Assembly (NCBI GenBank): GCA_018897535.1
Contig: JAHIKO010000020.1
Location: 1-38,573, forward strand
Length of the DNA stretch: 38,573 nt
Origin: Candidatus Babelota bacterium
GTDB taxonomy: Bacteria; Babelota; Babeliae; Babelales; UASB340
Direction of reading: 5' to 3'
A program made the translations under genes and the position numbers. Under the pieces are notes generated by a model. The model was not told where the DNA came from. It saw nothing but the letters and a program-made list of their open reading frames with translations, and made no database searches. Of this stretch, positions 4,560 through 29,858 are shown one piece after another (position 1 is the stretch's first letter; each line of letters opens with the position of its first letter).

Positions 4560-4710
4560 GTCCCTACCCTTTCCCCCAAAAACTCATAACCTCAATTTAA
4601 AAATAAAACATTTAATGCTTGCTATGCAAGCTTTTTATTAAATAATTGCATTTGTGTTTATATATTTGTTTTACTATTTAAAAGATAATATTTGGGGAAG
4701 GGTTTTAAAA

Positions 4711-5841
4711 ATGAAAATAATTTCAAGATTATTATTTGTTTGTTTGCTTTTTTATTTAAATTTGAGTTCATATAGCCTTAATTCAGAAGAAATAAAAGCA
4801 TTAAATAAAAATGGACAAGTTATTAAACGGCAAGATGTTCTTAATTTTTTCAGGCCTGCAAATAAGGCGTTAACTGCCGAAAAAATAGATACGGACCCAA
4901 TAAAATTGCGTGAAGCTGCTATTTATTCTTTAAATTTATTAAATAGCAGTAAATCTAATTTATCCACCACCAATCCCTATATTTTAAATCAAAGACTTAT
5001 AAATATCGATCGAGTAAAAGAGACTTTAAAATTTATAATACAGTTAGTAGAAAACGATCAAAAAACCAATTATCCATATCGCATTTTGGATCCGGTGTTT
5101 TTAAATATACATTTTAGTTTTTTAAGATGGACCGGAGATAAAGAAAGTGCTAAAAATAATGGTAAAACTATTTTTAAAGATGCTATTTATTTGACTCACT
5201 ATGCAACGTTTGAAATAGTTGGGAGTTATCAACAAAGTGAAGAGTATAAATATGCTCTCTATTCGATTATTAACAAAAATTTTGAAAATGATCTAAGATT
5301 CAAAATATCAAAGCAAAATATTTTAAAGGGTACTTTGAATTTGCCTGAGTATAAAAATAAAGTTAAGCCATTGGTTTGGCTTTCAAGAGACGGGCTTGAA
5401 GAGGCTTTAATGCAGGGAACAGCTGTTGTTAAAATGCCAGATGATAAAGAATTTGTATTTTGTGTTGATAAAAATAATGGTTTTGCCTATGACAAAAATA
5501 TAAAAGATAGAAAAGATCAAAAACGATACTGGTATTTCAAGCCATTAAATAACAATCAAAAAAATAAAAGCTCAAATCTTTTGGATTTAGGTGGAGTTAT
5601 TTTTGCCGGAGATATTTATAATTTGGGGCTTGGAAAAATTATCGCTATAAGATATAAAAATAGAATTACTCGGGCAACAGAAATGCGTCTTGGCGTTTTG
5701 GCCGATTCCGGTGGAGCGTTTATTAATAATCTATATCAACTTGATTTTTATGGTGGTATTTTTACAAATTATGATGATTTTTATAGTTGGGTAAGACCGA
5801 TGCCTAAAAATGTTCAGGCATATATAGTTGTTAAAAAATAA
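4711..5841 (+). CDS. mltA: MltA-like membrane-bound lytic murein transglycosylase (3D-domain protein)
   Basis: The track ORF starts at GTG 4654. I prefer ATG 4711 (MKIISRLLFVCLLFYLNLSS, a signal peptide), which is preceded by ggggaagg. The C-terminal blocks LGVLADSGGAFINNLYQLDFYGGIF and VQAYIVVKK resemble the MltA 3D-domain end (L.VALDVGGAIKG...D.Y.G.G ... VWVLK). QGTAVVKMPDD resembles the QGSG..... block. Confidence 0.55.
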   Translation: MKIISRLLFVCLLFYLNLSSYSLNSEEIKALNKNGQVIKRQDVLNFFRPANKALTAEKIDTDPIKLREAAIYSLNLLNSSKSNLSTTNPYILNQRLINIDRVKETLKFIIQLVENDQKTNYPYRILDPVFLNIHFSFLRWTGDKESAKNNGKTIFKDAIYLTHYATFEIVGSYQQSEEYKYALYSIINKNFENDLRFKISKQNILKGTLNLPEYKNKVKPLVWLSRDGLEEALMQGTAVVKMPDDKEFVFCVDKNNGFAYDKNIKDRKDQKRYWYFKPLNNNQKNKSSNLLDLGGVIFAGDIYNLGLGKIIAIRYKNRITRATEMRLGVLADSGGAFINNLYQLDFYGGIFTNYDDFYSWVRPMPKNVQAYIVVKK

Positions 5842-5891: not shown

Positions 5892-7874
5892 TTATAGTGT
5901 TGCTAGTAATAAAGAAATAACTGCCATTAATTTAATTAAAATATTCAAAGATGGTCCGGATGTATCTTTAAATGGATCGCCAACTGTATCACCAACTACA
6001 GCAGCTTTATGGGCATCTGAGCCTTTACCGCCAAAGTGACCTTCTTCAATATATTTTTTAGCATTATCCCATGCGCCACCGGCGTTTGCCATTGTGAGTG
6101 CAAGTAAAATTCCTGAAAGAGTTGCGCCTGCTAAGAATCCACCAAGAGCTATATTTCCCAAAGTATATTTTATTGCAACAGGTGCTCCAATTGTCAAAAT
6201 ACCCGGTAATATCATTTCTTTTAAAGCTGCATTTGTAGAAATTTCAATACATTTATTGTAGTCGGCATCAGCCTTACCTTCGGCAAGACCTTTTATAGAT
6301 TTAAATTGTCTTCTTACTTCAATAACCATTTGCCATGCAGCTTTGCCTACCGATTTCATAGTAAGAGCTGAAAGTAAAAATGGTAATGTGCTTCCAATAA
6401 ACATTCCAACTATTACTAGTGGATTTAAAATATCAATTCCCGGCATACCGGCTGTTTCGGAGTATGCTGCAAATATTGCCAATGCTGTTAACGCAGCAGA
6501 ACCTATTGCAAAGCCTTTACCTAGAGCTGCAGTCATATTTCCAAGAGCATCCAATTTATCTGTGATTTTTCTAACATTTGGACCAAATCCGGACATTTCT
6601 GATATTCCGCCTGCATTGTCTGCAATAGGGCCATATGCATCAACTGACATTGTAATACCAACGGTTGAAAGCATTGATACAGCTGCAATTGCTATTCCAT
6701 ATAATTCGCCAAAATATTTAAATGAAAAGAATATAATTAAAGCTAATGAAATTACAGGAGCTACAATTGATTCAAATCCAATTGATAAACCATAAATTAA
6801 ATTTGTTCCCGCACCTGTTTGTGATGATTCAGCAAGTTTTTGTACAGGTTTACCGCTTGTATAATAATCAGTTATGCGACCGATTATTACGCCTGATAAA
6901 GCACCCAATATTACGGCACCAAATAATTTAAGATCTATACCGACATATTTTACATAAGCATATGTTCCGGCAAGAAAGAAAATAATTGCTACATATGTAG
7001 AATTATGAAGCATTGAGCTTAATTTGCCTCTGAATAAAGGTATTGCAATTAAGCCAAATATTGAGCCAATTAAACCAATTGTAATAAGAACCAATGGTAA
7101 TGAAATATATAATAAATTTCCTGGAAATGCTGTAAATGCTAATGTCATTGCTGCCAATGTTGCGCCAACATAACTTTCGAAAATATCTGCACCCATACCG
7201 GCTGTATCACCAACGCAGTCACCAACATTGTCTGCAATTACGGCCGGATTTCTTGGATCGTCTTCAGGAATTCCCATTTCAATTTTACCGACAAGATCAG
7301 CTCCAACGTCAGCTGCTTTTGTAAATATTCCGCCACCAACACGAGCAAACAAGGCTATTGAGCTTGCTCCTAAACCGTAAACTGTAATAGCTTGTGCAAA
7401 GTTAACGTCAGTACTTTTTACAAATAAAAGAAACAATGATCCAAGTCCAATTAAGCCAAGAACAGCAACAACAAAACCCATTACGGCGCCACCAAAAATA
7501 GCGGTCATAAATGCTTTACGTTCTCCACTGTCTTTTGCGGCCATTGTTGTGGCAACGTTAGCTCTTGTTGCAGCTTTCATTCCAATGTAACCTGCAAGCA
7601 TTGAACTTATTGCTCCGGCAATATAAGCAAATCCAATAATTATGCTCTCTGTTGCGTATGATATAATCCCAAATGCAAAAACAATAAAAATTGCTAAAAT
7701 TGAATATTCTTTTTTAAGAAATGTCATTGCGCCATTTCTTATCAATTCAGCAATTTTTTCAGCTTTCTTATTTTCTATCTTTTGTTTTAAGATATTCCAA
7801 AATAACACTGCGACCACAAGTATTCCAAGAATGCTTGCGCCAAAAAACATTATTGAATAATGCATTAGCTCCAT
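5892..7874 (-). CDS. hppA: Membrane-integral ion-translocating inorganic pyrophosphatase
   Basis: 660 aa and highly hydrophobic. Signature blocks are [56 protein letters not shown] and [23 protein letters not shown]. Confidence 0.95.
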
Positions 7875-17711: not shown

Positions 17712-19460
17712 TTATATTGGCAATAATATTTGAAAAGTTGCTCCTTGTCCATCTACAAGTTTTATGCTTCCACCTGATTGATTTATAATTTCATGAACGA
17801 TAGCAAGACCAAGTCCCATATTTTTTTGGTTGGTTGAAACGTATGGCATAAAAAGTGTTGTTTTAACTTCTCTTGAAATTCCCGGTCCATTATCTGAAAT
17901 TAAAATTTCAAGTTTATTTAAATTTGTTTTAATTGTTGTTTTGATTTTTATAAATTTAACATTTGATATTACATCTTTTTCATCTTCACATAGAACTCTT
18001 ACGCTATTATCAAGCAAATTTACAATGGCACGTTTAAATTTTTTGTTATCGATTTTTATATAAGGTATGGGTTTTGTAAATTCACAAATAAAATTTATTT
18101 CCGGATAGCTTACTTTGTAAAGATTTACAATTTCTTCTATTATGTCGTTTACATCAATAGATTCAATATTATTAGATGGCAATTGTGCAAATTCCGAAAA
18201 ATGTGAAGCCAAATCTTTTATTATTTTTACTTGATTTAAAATTGTGTTTGTGCTGTCAAAAAAAACTTTTTCATGTTCTAAAATGTCTTTATATTTTCTT
18301 TGTAGATGTTGTGTGGCAAGCTGAATTGGGGTTAGAGGATTTTTAATTTCATGCGCGATTTGTCTTGCAGCTTCTTGCCAAGTTTTTATTTTGTTAATTT
18401 TTACAATATCGCTTAAATCTTCAATTATTACCAAAAGACCGTCATCTCGTTCACTTAATTTTGTATTGCTAAAATTGTTTTGTAATTTTGTTAAATGTAC
18501 AATAAATACTTTCTGCTCGGAATTAAAGCTAAAAGAAATTTCTCTTGTGAGCTGTGCTTTTTCCGACACAATGAGTTCTCTTGTAAGTTCTATAAATTTA
18601 TCTAAAACTTTTTTACCAAAAAAACTTATTCTTTTATTTTTAAATCTTTCAATACCCAGATATTTTTGAACCAATTCTTTTGATGCAGAATTATAAGTTA
18701 ATATTCGTCCTTTTTTATTAACATAAAAAATAGCTTCTTTCATATTTTCTATGATCATAAGCATTTCTTTGTTACTTTGTTCCAATTGATTATGTGCTGC
18801 TTGTAATGCCATTGTCATTTGATTGAAACTTATTTCTAAATTTTTAAGATCACTTGTTGAGTCTTGATTTAATGAAATATTCCATTCGCCTTGTTTAATC
18901 TTTTCAGTTGCTTTTAGTAATCCCAAAATAGGCTTACTGATGCCTTTTGCAAGATAAAATGCACACCATAAAGATAAAAATAATATCAATAAAGTTAGAA
19001 GTATAAATGTAAATAAATAGCTCCAATAGATTGGATTGCGTGTTGCTTTGAATTTTTTATAGTTGGTAATTTTTATACCTATATTTTGTTGTTCTTGAAT
19101 TAACCTGTAATTTTCATTAATACTTGCGTTAATTAATTTTCCTGCAATAAAGAAAACTAGAACCGATGGAACAACGGAAAAAACGCTAAATGCAAAAAGT
19201 AAATTTCTTTTAAAATTACTTCCCGGAATTTTTCTATTTTTTTCTACAAATAATTTAATACTTTGTCTTATTATTAAATATAAAAAAATTAAAATAGATA
19301 TTATATGTAAATTTATAAGCAAAAATAAAGCAATACGATTTGTATCATAGTGCGATAGATACTGTCTTTTGAATAGAAAAAATTCAAGCCAACCTGTTAT
19401 TAAAAAACTGATTAGACTTAATGCAAGTATTAAAAAACTTTTGTTTTTTGTTGATAACAT
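17712..19460 (-). CDS. Sensor histidine kinase, NtrY-like architecture (multi-TM, HAMP-like, PAS-like, HisKA, HATPase)
   Basis: H-box HEIKNPLTPI, N-box NLLDNSVR, G1 DNGPGI and G2 GLGLAIV. N-terminal hydrophobic helices and a second TM pair lie around aa 150-175. The ATG (19458-19460) directly abuts the aspS stop (19461-19463). Confidence 0.85.
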   Translation of the reverse strand: MLSTKNKSFLILALSLISFLITGWLEFFLFKRQYLSHYDTNRIALFLLINLHIISILIFLYLIIRQSIKLFVEKNRKIPGSNFKRNLLFAFSVFSVVPSVLVFFIAGKLINASINENYRLIQEQQNIGIKITNYKKFKATRNPIYWSYLFTFILLTLLILFLSLWCAFYLAKGISKPILGLLKATEKIKQGEWNISLNQDSTSDLKNLEISFNQMTMALQAAHNQLEQSNKEMLMIIENMKEAIFYVNKKGRILTYNSASKELVQKYLGIERFKNKRISFFGKKVLDKFIELTRELIVSEKAQLTREISFSFNSEQKVFIVHLTKLQNNFSNTKLSERDDGLLVIIEDLSDIVKINKIKTWQEAARQIAHEIKNPLTPIQLATQHLQRKYKDILEHEKVFFDSTNTILNQVKIIKDLASHFSEFAQLPSNNIESIDVNDIIEEIVNLYKVSYPEINFICEFTKPIPYIKIDNKKFKRAIVNLLDNSVRVLCEDEKDVISNVKFIKIKTTIKTNLNKLEILISDNGPGISREVKTTLFMPYVSTNQKNMGLGLAIVHEIINQSGGSIKLVDGQGATFQILLPI

Positions 19461-21365: not shown

Positions 21366-23534
21366 TTAGAATCTATATTCTAAAGATATAACACCCCAGA
21401 ATGCATTATCATCGGAGATTCTGTAATCTGCAGGATTAAGACCTGTACGAGCATCTGAAGGAATTTTGTCTCTGTAAAAATCGCCCCTAATTGGCACGCC
21501 TTTTACATCTTTATAAAATGTTCCGGGTGCAAAGAAAGAAACGATAGCACCAAGTGTTAAGTCTTTTATTAATTCATAATTTAATATTAAACTTATTTCC
21601 GTACCCAAGAAGCTTCTTGCTTTTTCTGTGCTTGATACTTGGCTGTTATCAGGATTTGCGCTATCCAAAACATATTTGTAAGAATCATCATTTTTCCAGA
21701 AAAATACTAAATTTGGATTTATTTTAAATCTATTTTTTTCATAACTTGCCGGTTTCCATGTGGCACCAATACCGAAATATGTTAAATCTGTAAATCCGTT
21801 GTCTATTTTTGCTCTAAATCCATCAACTTCTTTTTGTCCGGCTACAAGTCCTCTTAATCTTGGTATATATCTTTCACCAAGTACCATTGGTGCAAAAACT
21901 CTTTTACCCATGTAAATTTCATGTAGTCCAATAAATCCGTGATAATTTTTATTTACTTCATTTACTGTTGGATCATTGTCGCCTGATGCATATCCTAATT
22001 CGGCAGCAATTTTTAATGTTTTTGTTGCTTGATATCTTGTGTCAAATATTGCCATATACCCTTCAAAATCGTTTGTGTATTCAGGGCGAACTCTTGTTGA
22101 TTTGTTGATTAATCTTTGATCATTGTCTCCACCGTCTGGATATGCTGTTGTGCGAGTAATATTGTTATTATTATAAACTGCACTTGTAGCCGCAGTATTA
22201 ATTGGCGCATTTTTACCATTTAATGTTCCACCGTTAACGTTTACATGACTGTAGCCTTTGTATAACATGCCAGCTCCATAAGAGTTGTCTGCCGTTATAT
22301 CGATCATGTCTGAAATATTTGTTGGAATTTTTCCATCAGTTTTAACTACGGCAAGTTGTACTTTATTTCTATCTATGGAGTACAATTTTTCTTGACCATA
22401 ATTGAATGCCATTTCACCGCCAATTTTGAATTTATTTTTTTTGTATCTGGTTTCAAATCCATAAGCTCCAAGTTGTGTTTTTGTATCATTAGCAACTTCT
22501 ACTTTTTGATCTGAAGCTTCATTGAAATATATGTATGGCTCAATGTCCCATCTTCCATCTGATTTATTATCAAATGGTCTAATTATTAATCTTGCGGCCC
22601 AAAGTTCATCATCTTTTCCATCACCTCTGTATGGATTTGATCTTCTGCCAACATGATTTATTTTTACCGTGTTGTTAAATGTATCGTCTATGGATGCACT
22701 TTTTTCTTCAAATTTTGCGTAATATAAATCGTACCATAATTTATTTTTGATAAGTTCGCCGTTTAAAACAAGTCCAGGCGCAGATGCATCTGCATTATAG
22801 CTAAACAAGCCTAAAGCTTCTTCTACTGCTCCATAAATACTTCCAAGAGCTACACCTCTGCCAAGTTGAAATGGGAACCATCCAATTTTGAAATATTGTA
22901 TTTTATCGTTTTTTGAATTGAAAATTTTGTTTAAGCTTACCATTAACCATGCATCTTTAAACCATGGGTTTGGACGGCTTGAATAGTGAGCATGTTCTCC
23001 GAGCGAAATTCCATCAAGTGTTATTTCTGCTGCAGTTGTACTTTTATAAGCACCAACAACACCCCATTTATTTTTCATGCGTAAATCTAAAAATGCTTCA
23101 ACGGCTCTGTGTCCACATTTTTCTTCACCAAAAATTGCATCAACGGTTAAATCTACTGTTTCTTTGAAAAAACCGATATCATCAGGAATTTTGTTATTTA
23201 AATAATTGTTGTTTAAATAATTATCATATTCAACTCTAATTTTGCCACCGAAAATAACTTCCAAATCATCTTTTTTAAAAGTTATTCTTGGCTTGGACAA
23301 TGGTTGTTCTACTGCGGCAAACGTTGGTAATTCTTTGGATTTTAATTCCGGTGTTGATACTTCTTCGTCATCTAAAAAGTCTCCTAAATCAGGATCTAAA
23401 TTGTCTGCAGTCATCTGTTGATTTTTATTTGTTGTGCTATTTGCAGCATTGTTTTTTGCATTTGAATCTGAAACCATAACTGCAGTTAAAAATGCTAAAA
23501 GCAGTAGCTTGTTTTTTGTTAACTCTAACATCAA
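21366..23534 (-). CDS. Large outer-membrane beta-barrel protein (porin-like), orphan family
   Basis: 722 aa with signal peptide MMLELTKNKLLLLAFLTAVMVSDSNA. An acidic low-complexity linker (DNLDPDLGDFLDDEEVSTPELK) follows. Many amphipathic beta-strand segments are present, and the C-terminus is the classical OMP type, VISLEYRF, with a terminal Phe. A strong SD aagggag lies upstream. Confidence 0.55.
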   Translation of the reverse strand: MMLELTKNKLLLLAFLTAVMVSDSNAKNNAANSTTNKNQQMTADNLDPDLGDFLDDEEVSTPELKSKELPTFAAVEQPLSKPRITFKKDDLEVIFGGKIRVEYDNYLNNNYLNNKIPDDIGFFKETVDLTVDAIFGEEKCGHRAVEAFLDLRMKNKWGVVGAYKSTTAAEITLDGISLGEHAHYSSRPNPWFKDAWLMVSLNKIFNSKNDKIQYFKIGWFPFQLGRGVALGSIYGAVEEALGLFSYNADASAPGLVLNGELIKNKLWYDLYYAKFEEKSASIDDTFNNTVKINHVGRRSNPYRGDGKDDELWAARLIIRPFDNKSDGRWDIEPYIYFNEASDQKVEVANDTKTQLGAYGFETRYKKNKFKIGGEMAFNYGQEKLYSIDRNKVQLAVVKTDGKIPTNISDMIDITADNSYGAGMLYKGYSHVNVNGGTLNGKNAPINTAATSAVYNNNNITRTTAYPDGGDNDQRLINKSTRVRPEYTNDFEGYMAIFDTRYQATKTLKIAAELGYASGDNDPTVNEVNKNYHGFIGLHEIYMGKRVFAPMVLGERYIPRLRGLVAGQKEVDGFRAKIDNGFTDLTYFGIGATWKPASYEKNRFKINPNLVFFWKNDDSYKYVLDSANPDNSQVSSTEKARSFLGTEISLILNYELIKDLTLGAIVSFFAPGTFYKDVKGVPIRGDFYRDKIPSDARTGLNPADYRISDDNAFWGVISLEYRF

Positions 23535-27623: not shown

Positions 27624-28628
27624 ATGAATGAAAAAACTTTATTTGTAGTTGCTTCAGGTTCAGGCGGGCATATTTTGCCCGCGCTAATTTTGGCAAAAGA
27701 ATGGAAAATTAAAAATTTAGGTAAAGTTGTCTTTTTTACAGGGGTTAAGAATTTGGATAAAACTATTTTAGATGATAATAGTTTTATTGATCAAAAAATA
27801 TATTTAAAGTTATCTAACTTCCCGGGAAAAAAAGTTTATTTATACCCTAAATTTATTTGGCAATTTATTTTCAGTTATTTTAGAGCTATTTATTGGGTTA
27901 AAAGATATAAAAATATAACTGTAATTTCTACCGGTGGATATTTAGCAATTCCTGTTTGTTTGGCTGCAAAAAGATATAAGCAAGAAATAATTTTATATGA
28001 ATTAAATGTTGTTCCCGGTAAAGCAATAAAATTTTTGTCCAAATTGGCGACTAAAATAAATATTGTTTTTGAAAATAGTAAAAATTATTTTTCTAAAAAA
28101 TTACAAAACAAAATAAATCTAACAAATTATCCGTTAAGATATTCAGAATCAGACAAGATTTTTGATAAGCAAGAGCTTATATTAAAAATAAATAAGCAAG
28201 ATAGTATAAATTTTGATATTAATAAAAAAACTATATTTGTATTGGGCGGTTCTCAAGGTTCCGTTTCTTTAAATAATTATTTTAAAGTTTGGTTAAAAAA
28301 ATATAGTTTGCATGATAATTTTGAATTAAATAATATTCAGGTTATTCACCAAACAGGTGCATTGGATAAAACCAATTGGCAAGATTTTTATAAAAATTTA
28401 AATATACAAGCCATAGTTTTTTCGTATCGACAAGATTTAAAAGATTATTATTTATTATCAGATTTGGTTTTTGCCAGAGCAGGCGCGGGTACGCTATTTG
28501 AGCTTGAATTTTTTCAAAAGAGAAGTTTTATTTTTCCATTAAACACAGGATATACATCGCATCAGGTTGATAATGCGAAATTTATGGTAGAAAGAAATAA
28601 AGAGCTGTTTAAAATAAAACAGCTCTAA
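27624..28628 (+). CDS. murG: UDP-N-acetylglucosamine--N-acetylmuramyl-(pentapeptide)-pyrophosphoryl-undecaprenol GlcNAc transferase
   Basis: Motifs are VVASGSGGHILPALILA (N-terminal G-loop), FVLGGSQGS and FARAGAGTLFELEF, at the spacing typical of GT28 MurG. Confidence 0.85.
   Translation: MNEKTLFVVASGSGGHILPALILAKEWKIKNLGKVVFFTGVKNLDKTILDDNSFIDQKIYLKLSNFPGKKVYLYPKFIWQFIFSYFRAIYWVKRYKNITVISTGGYLAIPVCLAAKRYKQEIILYELNVVPGKAIKFLSKLATKINIVFENSKNYFSKKLQNKINLTNYPLRYSESDKIFDKQELILKINKQDSINFDINKKTIFVLGGSQGSVSLNNYFKVWLKKYSLHDNFELNNIQVIHQTGALDKTNWQDFYKNLNIQAIVFSYRQDLKDYYLLSDLVFARAGAGTLFELEFFQKRSFIFPLNTGYTSHQVDNAKFMVERNKELFKIKQL
28601..28625. terminator. Hairpin at the murG 3' end, a probable terminator for the convergent kinase gene
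   Basis: Perfect 9-bp stem AGAGCTGTT (28601-28609) / AACAGCTCT (28617-28625) with loop taaaata. On the minus strand it is followed by ttatttctttc. On the plus strand it is followed by an A-rich tail, so it is less convincing for murG. Confidence 0.4.
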
Positions 28629-28652: not shown

Positions 28653-29729
28653 TTAAATATCAGTAATTTCAATATAAAGTTTTTTTAATGCGTTAAAAAT
28701 ATCTAAAGCATTAGGTCTTTTATCTGGGTCTGGATTCCAGCATTTTTCTATTATTTCGTTTATAATAGGGTATTGAACTACAGAGTCATCTAATTTTGGT
28801 CTTACTCCATTTGCAATAAGTTGAATTATTGGTTCTCTTTTTTTTGTATCATTTTCGTATATGGGCATATTTTTTATTTCTTCTTTGTTTTCTTTTTTAA
28901 TAGTTTTAAAAAATTTCTTACCATAAAAGATTTCGTATAACGTTACTCCAAATGAATGTATATCTGCAGCTTTCGAAATATTATATGTTTTTTGTTGTTT
29001 ATTTGGATCAATGCTTTTTATTAATATATTTTCTGATGGAGTATAAAAAATTGTTCCTTTAAAAAATTCAGAAATTTCTTCGTTTTTTGTAAATGTAAAA
29101 TCTGTTAACCAAATATTTATAAAATCGATTTTTTTATTACATGAATATAAAAAATTATCTGGTTTTATATCTTGGTGAACTAAATTATTATGATGTAACA
29201 TATTTATAGCAGCTATTGCTCCAAGAGATATTTGTAATTTATGTTTGATATTTAATTCTTTATAATAGTGATATAAAAAATAATCCAACGAATTTTCTGC
29301 CCGCATTGTGAATATGATGTATATTTTGTTAGGTTTATCATAAATATATCCTAAGTACTTGATTATATTTGGATGTTTAAGTTTTTGTAGTAAATTCAGT
29401 TCGCGCAAAAAACGTCTTTCAGGATCTTTTACTGGAATAAAATATGAACAGGCCATTTCTTTTTTTTCATCATTTTCAATTTTTGTTCCACTGAATACTA
29501 TTTTTTCGGTACCTTGTCCTATTGTTGTTATATCTTTAAAATCATGTTTAGTTAAAATATCTTTAGCAATTTCTTCATAGTTTGGTATCTCTTGATTAAG
29601 GTTTGGTGTCTCTTCATTAAGATTTGGTATCTCTTCATTAAGCGCCAAAATATTTGTATAAACAAAAGATGCAAATATAAAAAAAACGTTTATGAAATAT
29701 TTTTTAAAATTATTTAACATAATTTTCAA
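28653..29729 (-). CDS. Secreted eukaryotic-like (TKL/Tyr-kinase-like) protein kinase
   Basis: 358 aa with signal peptide MKIMLNNFKKYFINVFFIFASFVYTNILA. Hanks subdomains are: I IGQGTEKIVFSG; III FLRELNLLQKL; IV HPNIIKYLGY; VIb LVHQDIKPDNFL; VII LTDFTFT; VIII GTIFYTPSE; IX DIHSFGVTLYEIF; XI CWNPDPDKRPNALDI. The subdomain IX and XI patterns (D..SFG..L.E, CW..DP..RP) are of the TKL/TK type. Confidence 0.85.
   Translation of the reverse strand: MKIMLNNFKKYFINVFFIFASFVYTNILALNEEIPNLNEETPNLNQEIPNYEEIAKDILTKHDFKDITTIGQGTEKIVFSGTKIENDEKKEMACSYFIPVKDPERRFLRELNLLQKLKHPNIIKYLGYIYDKPNKIYIIFTMRAENSLDYFLYHYYKELNIKHKLQISLGAIAAINMLHHNNLVHQDIKPDNFLYSCNKKIDFINIWLTDFTFTKNEEISEFFKGTIFYTPSENILIKSIDPNKQQKTYNISKAADIHSFGVTLYEIFYGKKFFKTIKKENKEEIKNMPIYENDTKKREPIIQLIANGVRPKLDDSVVQYPIINEIIEKCWNPDPDKRPNALDIFNALKKLYIEITDI
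29581..29643. repeat. 3 x 21-bp tandem repeat within the kinase gene, encoding heptapeptide repeats
   Basis: The units are tttggtatctcttgattaagg / tttggtgtctcttcattaaga / tttggtatctcttcattaagc. On the minus strand they encode LNEEIPN-LNEETPN-LNQEIPN immediately after the signal peptide. Confidence 0.9.
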
Positions 29730-29858
29730 CCCCCATATTTAATTAAATTTCAGATAGTAATAATAATATTCGTTTTGAAAAATATAACAAATGGGTTGAT
29801 AAAATAGCAGAAAAAACGAGATTTATTAATTATTTTGTTATGATTTTTGAAAAAATCA

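Follow-up and report, generated by a model that had tools for sequence, protein, structure and literature searches.

A predicted exported TKL-like kinase of TM6/Dependentiae bacteria with a lysine layout resembling that of WNK kinases

We studied a putative protein kinase gene on the minus strand of a 38.6-kb contig of a Candidatus Babelota bacterium (JAHIKO010000020.1, 28% G+C); this whole contig is called the window here. The predicted product lacks the lysine of the beta3 VAIK motif and carries one in its glycine-rich loop, the arrangement that defines the WNK (with-no-lysine) kinases, which according to Kannan et al. are the only functional eukaryotic protein kinase (ePK) family without the residue equivalent to PKA K72 (PMC1821047). 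The locus raises the question of what such a protein is in a bacterium: a WNK kinase taken from a host, a pseudokinase, a housekeeping regulator, or an active enzyme in which the lysine moved independently. Judging from sequence comparisons and a structure model, we hold with modest confidence that it would be an active, exported, host-directed Ser/Thr kinase on a TKL scaffold, specific to a small, UASB340-related clade of amoeba-associated TM6/Dependentiae bacteria.

Kinase domain and retained catalytic residues

The list of open reading frames (ORFs) of the window contains a minus-strand ORF at 28653-29729. The kinase coding sequence and its motifs lie within it as follows, with residues numbered from the ATG at 29720 (see below).

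28653..29720, minus strand: kinase coding sequence, 355 aa, start ATG at 29720, stop TAA at 28653-28655, Pfam Pkinase match at 2e-33
29496..29519, minus strand: glycine-rich loop G68-Q-G-T-E-K73-I-V75, with the Lys73 codon at 29502-29504, aligning with PKA G55 and WNK1 K233
29439..29459, minus strand: beta3 strand E88-M-A-C-S92-Y-F94, with the Ser92 codon at 29445-29447, in the VAIK-lysine column
29400..29402, minus strand: alphaC glutamate E107 (FLRELN), invariant in the family
29154..29177, minus strand: catalytic loop H182-Q-D184-I-K186-P-D-N189; H, D, K, P and N invariant in the orthologs, second residue Q, R or C
29094..29102, minus strand: metal-binding motif D207-F-T209 (DFT for DFG), DFT in 7/7 family members
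28713..28742, minus strand: subdomain XI C327-W-N-P-D-P-D-K-R335-P336 of the TK/TKL type CWxxxPxxRP; C327, P332, R335 and P336 invariant

The product, identical to entry P0001 of the protein database, contains by its profile matches a genuine protein kinase domain: Pkinase scored 116.3 bits against a gathering cut-off of 31.7, and PK_Tyr_Ser-Thr 100.8 bits (1e-28) against 23.1. Apart from the kinase models Pfam found no domain in it, neither PASTA nor other sensor domains, and the protein ends 9 residues past the kinase domain. The remaining catalytic residues, predicted from the outset to be kept, are present and conserved among the orthologs described below: E107 in FLRELN, the HQDIKPDN loop and the Asp of DFT. 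Glu107 lies 15 residues past Ser92, a spacing as in TK and TKL kinases. The description as a non-RD kinase holds for the window protein, which reads HQD, but not as a family feature: the orthologs read HRD or HCD. C-lobe motifs of the TKL and tyrosine kinase type had also been proposed and are indeed there. CWNPDPDKRP lies in a segment that aligns to the C-lobes of JAK1, Roco4 and IRAK4, the protein also carries DIHSFG and GTIFYTPSE, and its Foldseek and profile matches (see below) are TKL and tyrosine kinases.

Position of the relocated lysine

Columns were assigned with a hidden Markov model (HMM) of 40 canonical kinase domains, none of them from this family, onto which the family was aligned together with PKA, WNK1 and a moss protein described below; the WNK1 kinase-domain query was identical to PDB chain 6cn9_A. 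GQGTEK was aligned with GTGSFG of PKA and GRGSFK of WNK1, and MACS with YAMK of PKA and AWC- of WNK1. Lys73 fell in the column of PKA G55 and WNK1 K233, and Ser92 in that of PKA K72 and WNK1 C250 (posterior probabilities ~0.7-1.0). A BLASTP alignment with 6cn9_A set IGQGTEKIVF with IGRGSFKTVY and EMACSYF with EVAWCEL, giving the same pairs, Lys73-Lys233 and Ser92-Cys250. The alignments with JAK1 and Roco4 also put Ser92 in the VAIK-lysine column, and phmmer against solved kinases placed either Ser92 or the adjacent Tyr93 opposite that lysine; neither register gives a lysine. The WNK-type layout first read by eye, with the beta3 lysine absent and a lysine at the third glycine, is thus found in agreement by the canonical profile and by the direct comparison with WNK1.

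An AlphaFold2 model made from a 7-sequence alignment (mean predicted local distance difference test, pLDDT, 76.8; ~80 in the N-lobe) has beta1 at residues 61-69, beta2 at 73-82, beta3 at 85-94 and alphaC at 100-113. In this model beta2 begins with Lys73, Ser92 stands near the C-terminal end of beta3 and Glu107 is the eighth residue of alphaC; Lys73 and Ser92 both belong to the beta2-beta3 hairpin there, as G55 and K72 do in PKA.

A shift of register might have returned a lysine to the VAIK column, and the candidates named for it were K89, K90 and K101 in the earlier numbering. K101 is unconserved, being Asn in the other two close orthologs (85% and 56% identical). In the AlphaFold model K89 and K90 belong to the end of beta3 next to the hairpin turn, and in the 56% ortholog (P0003) they come just 8 and 10 residues past the loop lysine, too close for the path from beta2 through the turn to beta3. 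No lysine was found in the beta3 VAIK column by this check.

The best 150 database proteins contain ~190 domains with an N-lobe; of these, a loop lysine combined with the lack of a beta3 lysine occurred in this family and one moss protein alone. Other apparent matches with a lysine at column 73 (P0044, P0109 and others) were, on reading the sequences, alignment shifts in canonical kinases. The moss protein, Ceratodon purpureus KAG0605062.1 (P0131), has a C-terminal kinase domain (residues ~793-1075) with a WNK-like GRGSVKTVY loop; the beta3 lysine column holds Ser (IVAVSTIE), subdomain XI is of the TKL type (CW..RPSF), and the domain reads DFQ. This may be a further eukaryotic example, outside WNK, of lysine relocation, and given this protein the layout is, at the level of sequence, not unique outside WNK.

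Relationship to WNK, TKL and bacterial kinases

The layout itself suggests one origin: a true WNK acquired horizontally from a eukaryotic host, its lysine arrangement inherited. The glycine-loop and beta3 columns match WNK1, which scored 74.5 bits against the family profile, well above the 39 bits of PKA, and the TM6 bacteria live with protists, which would offer an opportunity for transfer. We nevertheless regard this origin as very improbable. Identity to WNK1 is 21%, and at least 60 distinct PDB sequences, mostly TKL, outscore it: the best 60 distinct sequences reached 85-118 bits and none is a WNK (JAK1, Roco4, TTK, DLK, SOBIR1, CERK1, CTR1, IRAK4 and IRE1 are among them). The signatures read from the WNK1 chain, namely the PPIIHRDLKCDN catalytic loop, DLG and GTPEFMAPE, are replaced in the window protein by LVHQDIKPDN, DFT and GTIFYTPSE; PPIIHRD and KCDN are absent. 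The top Foldseek matches were the kinase domains of JAK, EGFR and FAK. In a Kimura-distance neighbor-joining tree of 49 domains with 100 bootstraps, a crude one with a single WNK sequence and with the best matches to the family as taxa, 98/100 replicates recovered the family together with its tandem paralog (see below), and 0/100 joined the family to WNK1.

Feature by feature, the window protein and WNK1 (PDB 6cn9, 4q2a) share the lack of the beta3 VAIK lysine (Cys250 in WNK1, Ser or Leu at column 92 here), a lysine in place of the third glycine, where beta2 begins (Lys233 and Lys73, respectively), and the retained alphaC Glu, HxD Asp and metal-binding Asp. They differ in the catalytic loop (HQDIKPDN here, HRDLKCDN in WNK1), in the metal-binding motif (DFT, DLG) and in the residue before the loop lysine (Glu, Phe). 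The CW..RP subdomain XI of the window protein is missing from WNK1; the window protein is moreover bacterial and has a predicted N-terminal signal peptide. In WNK kinases catalysis depends on the loop lysine, chloride binds at the back of the active site, and the kinase domain is followed by autoinhibitory and PF2/CCT-like regions; the window kinase has neither a C-terminal extension nor WNK regulatory domains. By these comparisons the family is not WNK and shares with it only general kinase similarity, and convergence is the favoured explanation of the lysine relocation, the crude tree being one basis for this.

The best sequence-profile and fold matches are TKL kinases (IRAK4, CERK1, SOBIR1, Roco4, DLK/MAP3K12, CTR1) and JAK-type kinases, and the nearest named proteins outside the family are plant RLK/Pelle-type and Tritrichomonas kinases. 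With these the window protein has in common the HxDxKPxN loop of the Ser/Thr type, the GT..PE end of the activation segment, DxxSFG and CWxxxPxxRP. Unlike it, they keep the beta3 lysine and DFG and have no Sec signal peptide directly before the kinase domain, and identity is ~20-30%. The presence of CWxxxPxxRP together with best profile matches to TKL makes the protein assignable to a TKL-like level, not to one TKL family. The kinase scaffold may well be of eukaryotic TKL origin.

Bacterial Hanks-type kinases and pseudokinase families (PknB/Stk1, LegK1, ActPs, DYD, DLHK) resemble the window kinase in having the ePK fold and in being bacterial. None of the NCBIfam bacterial kinase families searched (PknB/Stk1, PknD, LegK1, PglW, MAD6) came near its cut-off: the best match was 71.7 bits against 460 (MAD6), and PknB gave 45-72 bits against 450. 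These matches started at about residue 100 (alphaC) in the window protein and in the ortholog P0040, and at residue 78 or later in the ortholog P0052, and left the N-lobe unmatched. In some bacterial pseudokinase families the beta3 lysine is replaced by Arg or Thr; the 2025 review that describes them reports no bacterial family with the lysine migrated to beta2 and cites WNK as a eukaryotic precedent only (PMC12599244). One analogous charge shift is described in a non-ePK family, CAK-chloro of the choline/aminoglycoside-like kinases (Kannan et al. 2007, PMC1821047). CAK-chloro resembles small-molecule kinases, however, and it has Arg instead of Lys and has lost the alphaC Glu that is kept here.

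Family, genomic locus and conservation

Relatives were sought by a word-indexed search of 5.8 billion proteins and by an exhaustive search of 1.84 billion representatives. The first returned two close relatives only (85% and 56% identity) and the second added P0040, P0052 and P0083, all small single-domain proteins. By per-domain score these three stood at 113-131 bits, against at most 88 bits for all others. The representative list was ranked by whole-protein score and held mostly multi-kinase eukaryotic proteins; weak single-domain relatives may have escaped it. A scan of GTDB genomes for further members gave UASB340 only, and one of JGI metagenomes gave generic kinases only, at no more than 30% identity. 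Besides the window protein, the family comprises five orthologous protein clusters, 29-85% identical to it, and one tandem paralog.

The 85%-identical ortholog comes from 'candidate division TM6 bacterium UASB340' (scaffold LDIX01000002), a genome of 1.08 Mb and 28.7% G+C from an anaerobic reactor, and the gene order there is that of the window, which accordingly belongs to a near relative of UASB340 within the Dependentiae. All six orthologs, that of the window included, are directly downstream of iPGM, in an iPGM-kinase-murG slot. The convergent murG was seen on the other side in five of the six, the sixth contig being too short to show that side. Beyond murG there follow a TPR protein and then DciA, where the contigs extend far enough. 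The family members are positional orthologs in related TM6 genomes, and the kinase gene has passed down vertically at one fixed locus in this TM6 clade, with no recent acquisition from a host. Of the two origins that the original prediction had offered, horizontal acquisition and convergence, the latter is favoured for the lysine relocation by the comparisons with WNK1.

Identity among the kinases falls to 29-34%, compared with 57-68% for murG, iPGM, the TPR protein and DciA. The ratio of nonsynonymous to synonymous substitution rates (dN/dS) between the window and UASB340 was 0.38 for the kinase, the highest among six adjacent genes, the neighbours having 0.06-0.21. The kinase gene is thereby shown to be under purifying but relaxed selection and to evolve faster than its neighbours.

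Only 49 columns stayed invariant across the six orthologs. They include, in the N-lobe, Gly70, Glu72-Lys73, Val75, Ala90-Cys91 and Glu107, and further on His182, Asp184, Lys186, Pro187, Asn189, Asp207-Phe-Thr209, Glu230, Cys327, Pro332, Arg335 and Pro336. Lys73 is the sole invariant basic residue of the N-lobe. When the tandem paralog is added, [E/D]-K73, A90-C91 and DFT are still found in 7/7 members (E72-K73 in the six orthologs, D-K in the paralog); at column 92 all members have Ser or Leu and none has Lys.

The tandem paralog (L005, 8704-9966; 420 aa, in MAG JBDRJW01) follows directly after the ortholog P0052 and has a signal peptide. It has a GSGKDKV loop with Lys in column 73, a 29-residue insertion in the beta2-beta3 hairpin, PVACLWY with no beta3 lysine, and DFT. 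The His of HRD is replaced in it (VNRD), and by its sequence it is probably a pseudokinase derivative. In a contig of the ANAN16 metagenome, the kinase and murG are separated by an inserted ORF (L002, 1610-2356; 248 aa) whose N-terminus is hydrophobic and which matched no Pfam model; the iPGM-murG slot appears to accumulate exported lineage-specific genes.

N-terminus and export

Two features were located upstream of the kinase domain.

29643..29720, minus strand: residues 1-26, predicted to be a Sec signal peptide or signal anchor: MLNNFKK + FINVFFIFASFVYTNIL + A|LN
29580..29642, minus strand: three 21-bp tandem repeats encoding the acidic linker LNEEIPN/LNEETPN/LNQEIPN after the signal peptide (TRF period 21, 3.0 copies, 90% matches)

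The N-terminus was held from the beginning to be a signal peptide, and by its hydrophobicity and charge it does resemble one of the Sec type. An uncharged, mostly hydrophobic stretch of ~18-19 residues (Kyte-Doolittle maximum over 19 residues 1.96) is preceded in the window protein by two Lys and followed by a strongly acidic stretch; the orthologs and the paralog all have such an n-region and h-region and a small residue at -1 as well. From the charge bias the kinase domain is predicted to be extracytoplasmic. Residues 1-44 are disordered in the AlphaFold model (pLDDT <50). The 21-bp repeats are in perfect register and are also found in the UASB340 ortholog, though not in the 56% ortholog, and the linker that they encode is expandable.

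A different role would follow if the protein stayed at the cell surface of the bacterium itself: that of a membrane-anchored housekeeping regulator acting, like PknB, on the cell's own envelope or cell-wall machinery and not as an effector directed at a host. The adjoining murG, together with a class A PBP and other envelope genes in the window, would suit such a function. The hydrophobic segment could be a transmembrane helix, and the locus is stable and vertically inherited. The evidence on the other side makes this role improbable in our view. Since the kinase gene converges on murG and ends in a terminator of its own, the two are not co-transcribed. The KK before the hydrophobic core and the net-acidic stretch after it predict a kinase domain outside the cytoplasm, where ATP is absent. 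All the NCBIfam bacterial kinase families remained far below cut-off with the N-lobe unmatched, and PASTA or other sensor domains are lacking. Moreover, the kinase is the fastest-evolving gene of a conserved block, which is typical of host-interaction proteins.

Export towards a host accords better with these data. Because the periplasm has no ATP, the retained catalytic apparatus would make most sense if the protein reaches a host. The TM6 bacteria are inferred to be host-dependent parasites and their genomes encode type II secretion components (PMC4776705). In the mechanism that we propose, the protein would be exported by the Sec pathway and then probably released by type II secretion, or exposed in some other way, to a protist host. 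There it would phosphorylate host proteins, like the signal-peptide-bearing secreted kinases of eukaryotic parasites. Rhoptry kinases (ROPKs) of Toxoplasma are a functional analogy only: they too bear signal peptides, are lineage-specific and are exported into the host by an intracellular parasite, but they are eukaryotic and use another secretion route. ROPKs evolve fast and, to our knowledge, the active ones retain the beta3 lysine. The ROPK family is described as a mixture of active enzymes and pseudokinases (PMC3682881).

Active kinase or pseudokinase

In the proposed mechanism Lys73 would reach from beta2 to ATP's alpha and beta phosphates and to Glu107 of alphaC, and would stand in for the beta3 lysine, the part that Lys233 plays in WNK1, yielding an active kinase; the relocation would have arisen independently of WNK. 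A lysine on beta2 can substitute catalytically for K72 in WNK1 (PMC1821047, PMC4718504). Taken together, these steps would amount to a second independent origin of an active ePK with a loop lysine, on a TKL-like scaffold and in Dependentiae, in the form of a Sec-exported, fast-evolving effector against protists; this fuller statement we put forward tentatively, at slightly less than an even chance. The invariant Glu-Lys pair and DFT might give the enzyme an altered nucleotide, metal or anion dependence.

The main rival is that the family consists of pseudokinases, exported or otherwise, which keep the fold and maybe nucleotide binding and serve as scaffolds, decoys or allosteric binders, the loop lysine holding ATP or stabilising the fold. 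The sequence definition of a pseudokinase does apply, with the VAIK lysine lost and the Asp of HxD and of DFx present, but that definition says nothing on actual activity, as WNK shows (PMC4718504). ULK4 offers a precedent in which a relocated lysine serves ATP binding without catalysis. We judge this rival unlikely, though it deserves serious weight. The Asp of HxD, the Lys and Asn of the catalytic loop, the Asp of DFT, the alphaC Glu, the Glu of APE and the Arg of subdomain XI are invariant down to 29% identity, and it is less favoured because a non-catalytic scaffold would not need these invariant residues. Lys73 is also at the exact position proven catalytic in WNK1.

Several observations weigh against an active, exported kinase, and some of them favour the pseudokinase explanation. 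Every member has DFT for DFG, and P0040, P0052 and P0083 have lost the first glycine of the loop. The dN/dS ratio, highest of the neighbourhood, and the degenerate tandem paralog without the HRD His (VNRD) show that the family tolerates active-site decay. At the tip of the loop, next to the ATP phosphates, there is a Glu instead of the usual aromatic residue. As for export, the signal peptide call rests on hydrophobicity and charge, the length of the hydrophobic segment would also suit a signal anchor, and in P0083 the core is followed by basic residues. The neighbor-joining tree is crude and has one WNK sequence, and the family is a sample of seven known sequences.

Start codon, terminator and other features of the window

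Two sites flank the kinase coding sequence.

29730..29734, minus strand: GGGGG run resembling a Shine-Dalgarno sequence, 9 nt 5' of the ATG, read from the upstream sequence
28601..28626, minus strand: hairpin resembling an intrinsic terminator, 10-bp stem and T-rich tail, 3' of the kinase stop and within the 3' end of murG

The ORF opens with a TTG at 29729, but the true start is almost certainly the ATG at 29720, because the GGGGG run, which is immediately adjacent to the TTG, stands 9 nt upstream of the ATG, and because the equivalent Met opens all orthologs. The spacing and the ortholog starts together speak against the TTG. The codons first assigned to the two key residues were correct (29502-29504 is AAA and 29445-29447 is TCA); their residue numbers were 3 too high as a consequence of the start at the ATG, so that the former Lys76 is Lys73 and the former Ser95 is Ser92.

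The terminator scan gave 2 sites where 0.4 were expected. The final codons of the convergent murG (end at 28628) contain the hairpin of the kinase, and the termination signals of the two genes overlap.

Elsewhere in the window, four ORFs had no Pfam match (E<=1e-4): 13428-16676 (1082 aa), 21366-23534 (722 aa), 11935-13392 (485 aa) and 4654-5841 (395 aa). UASB340 has a counterpart of the 722-aa ORF, 721 aa long, in the corresponding place. The H+-translocating pyrophosphatase at 5892-7874 (Pfam 5.6e-245) and the HisKA/HATPase_c histidine kinase at 17712-19460 are both ordinary, in a reduced genome.

Significance

Full-text literature searches for bacterial WNK-like kinases or for Dependentiae kinases found nothing relevant. 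The view that the WNK-type layout is a eukaryotic feature agrees with the microbial kinome and pseudokinase literature searched, in which no bacterial family with it is described. The locus is of interest chiefly because a bacterial and probably exported protein appears to repeat the WNK solution independently and in conserved form.

WNK is the textbook caution against calling kinases dead from their sequence alone. If our reading is true, the family would be a natural replicate of the WNK evolutionary experiment on a different scaffold, kept through divergence to less than 30% identity. It would allow the accompanying changes that are required to be separated from those that are incidental, here Glu before the lysine, Ala-Cys in beta3 and DFT. 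Pseudokinase catalogues that score such bacterial proteins as inactive would call for caution. For the Dependentiae, a phylum of protist parasites for which we found no described effector kinase in the literature searched, it would provide a concrete candidate effector.

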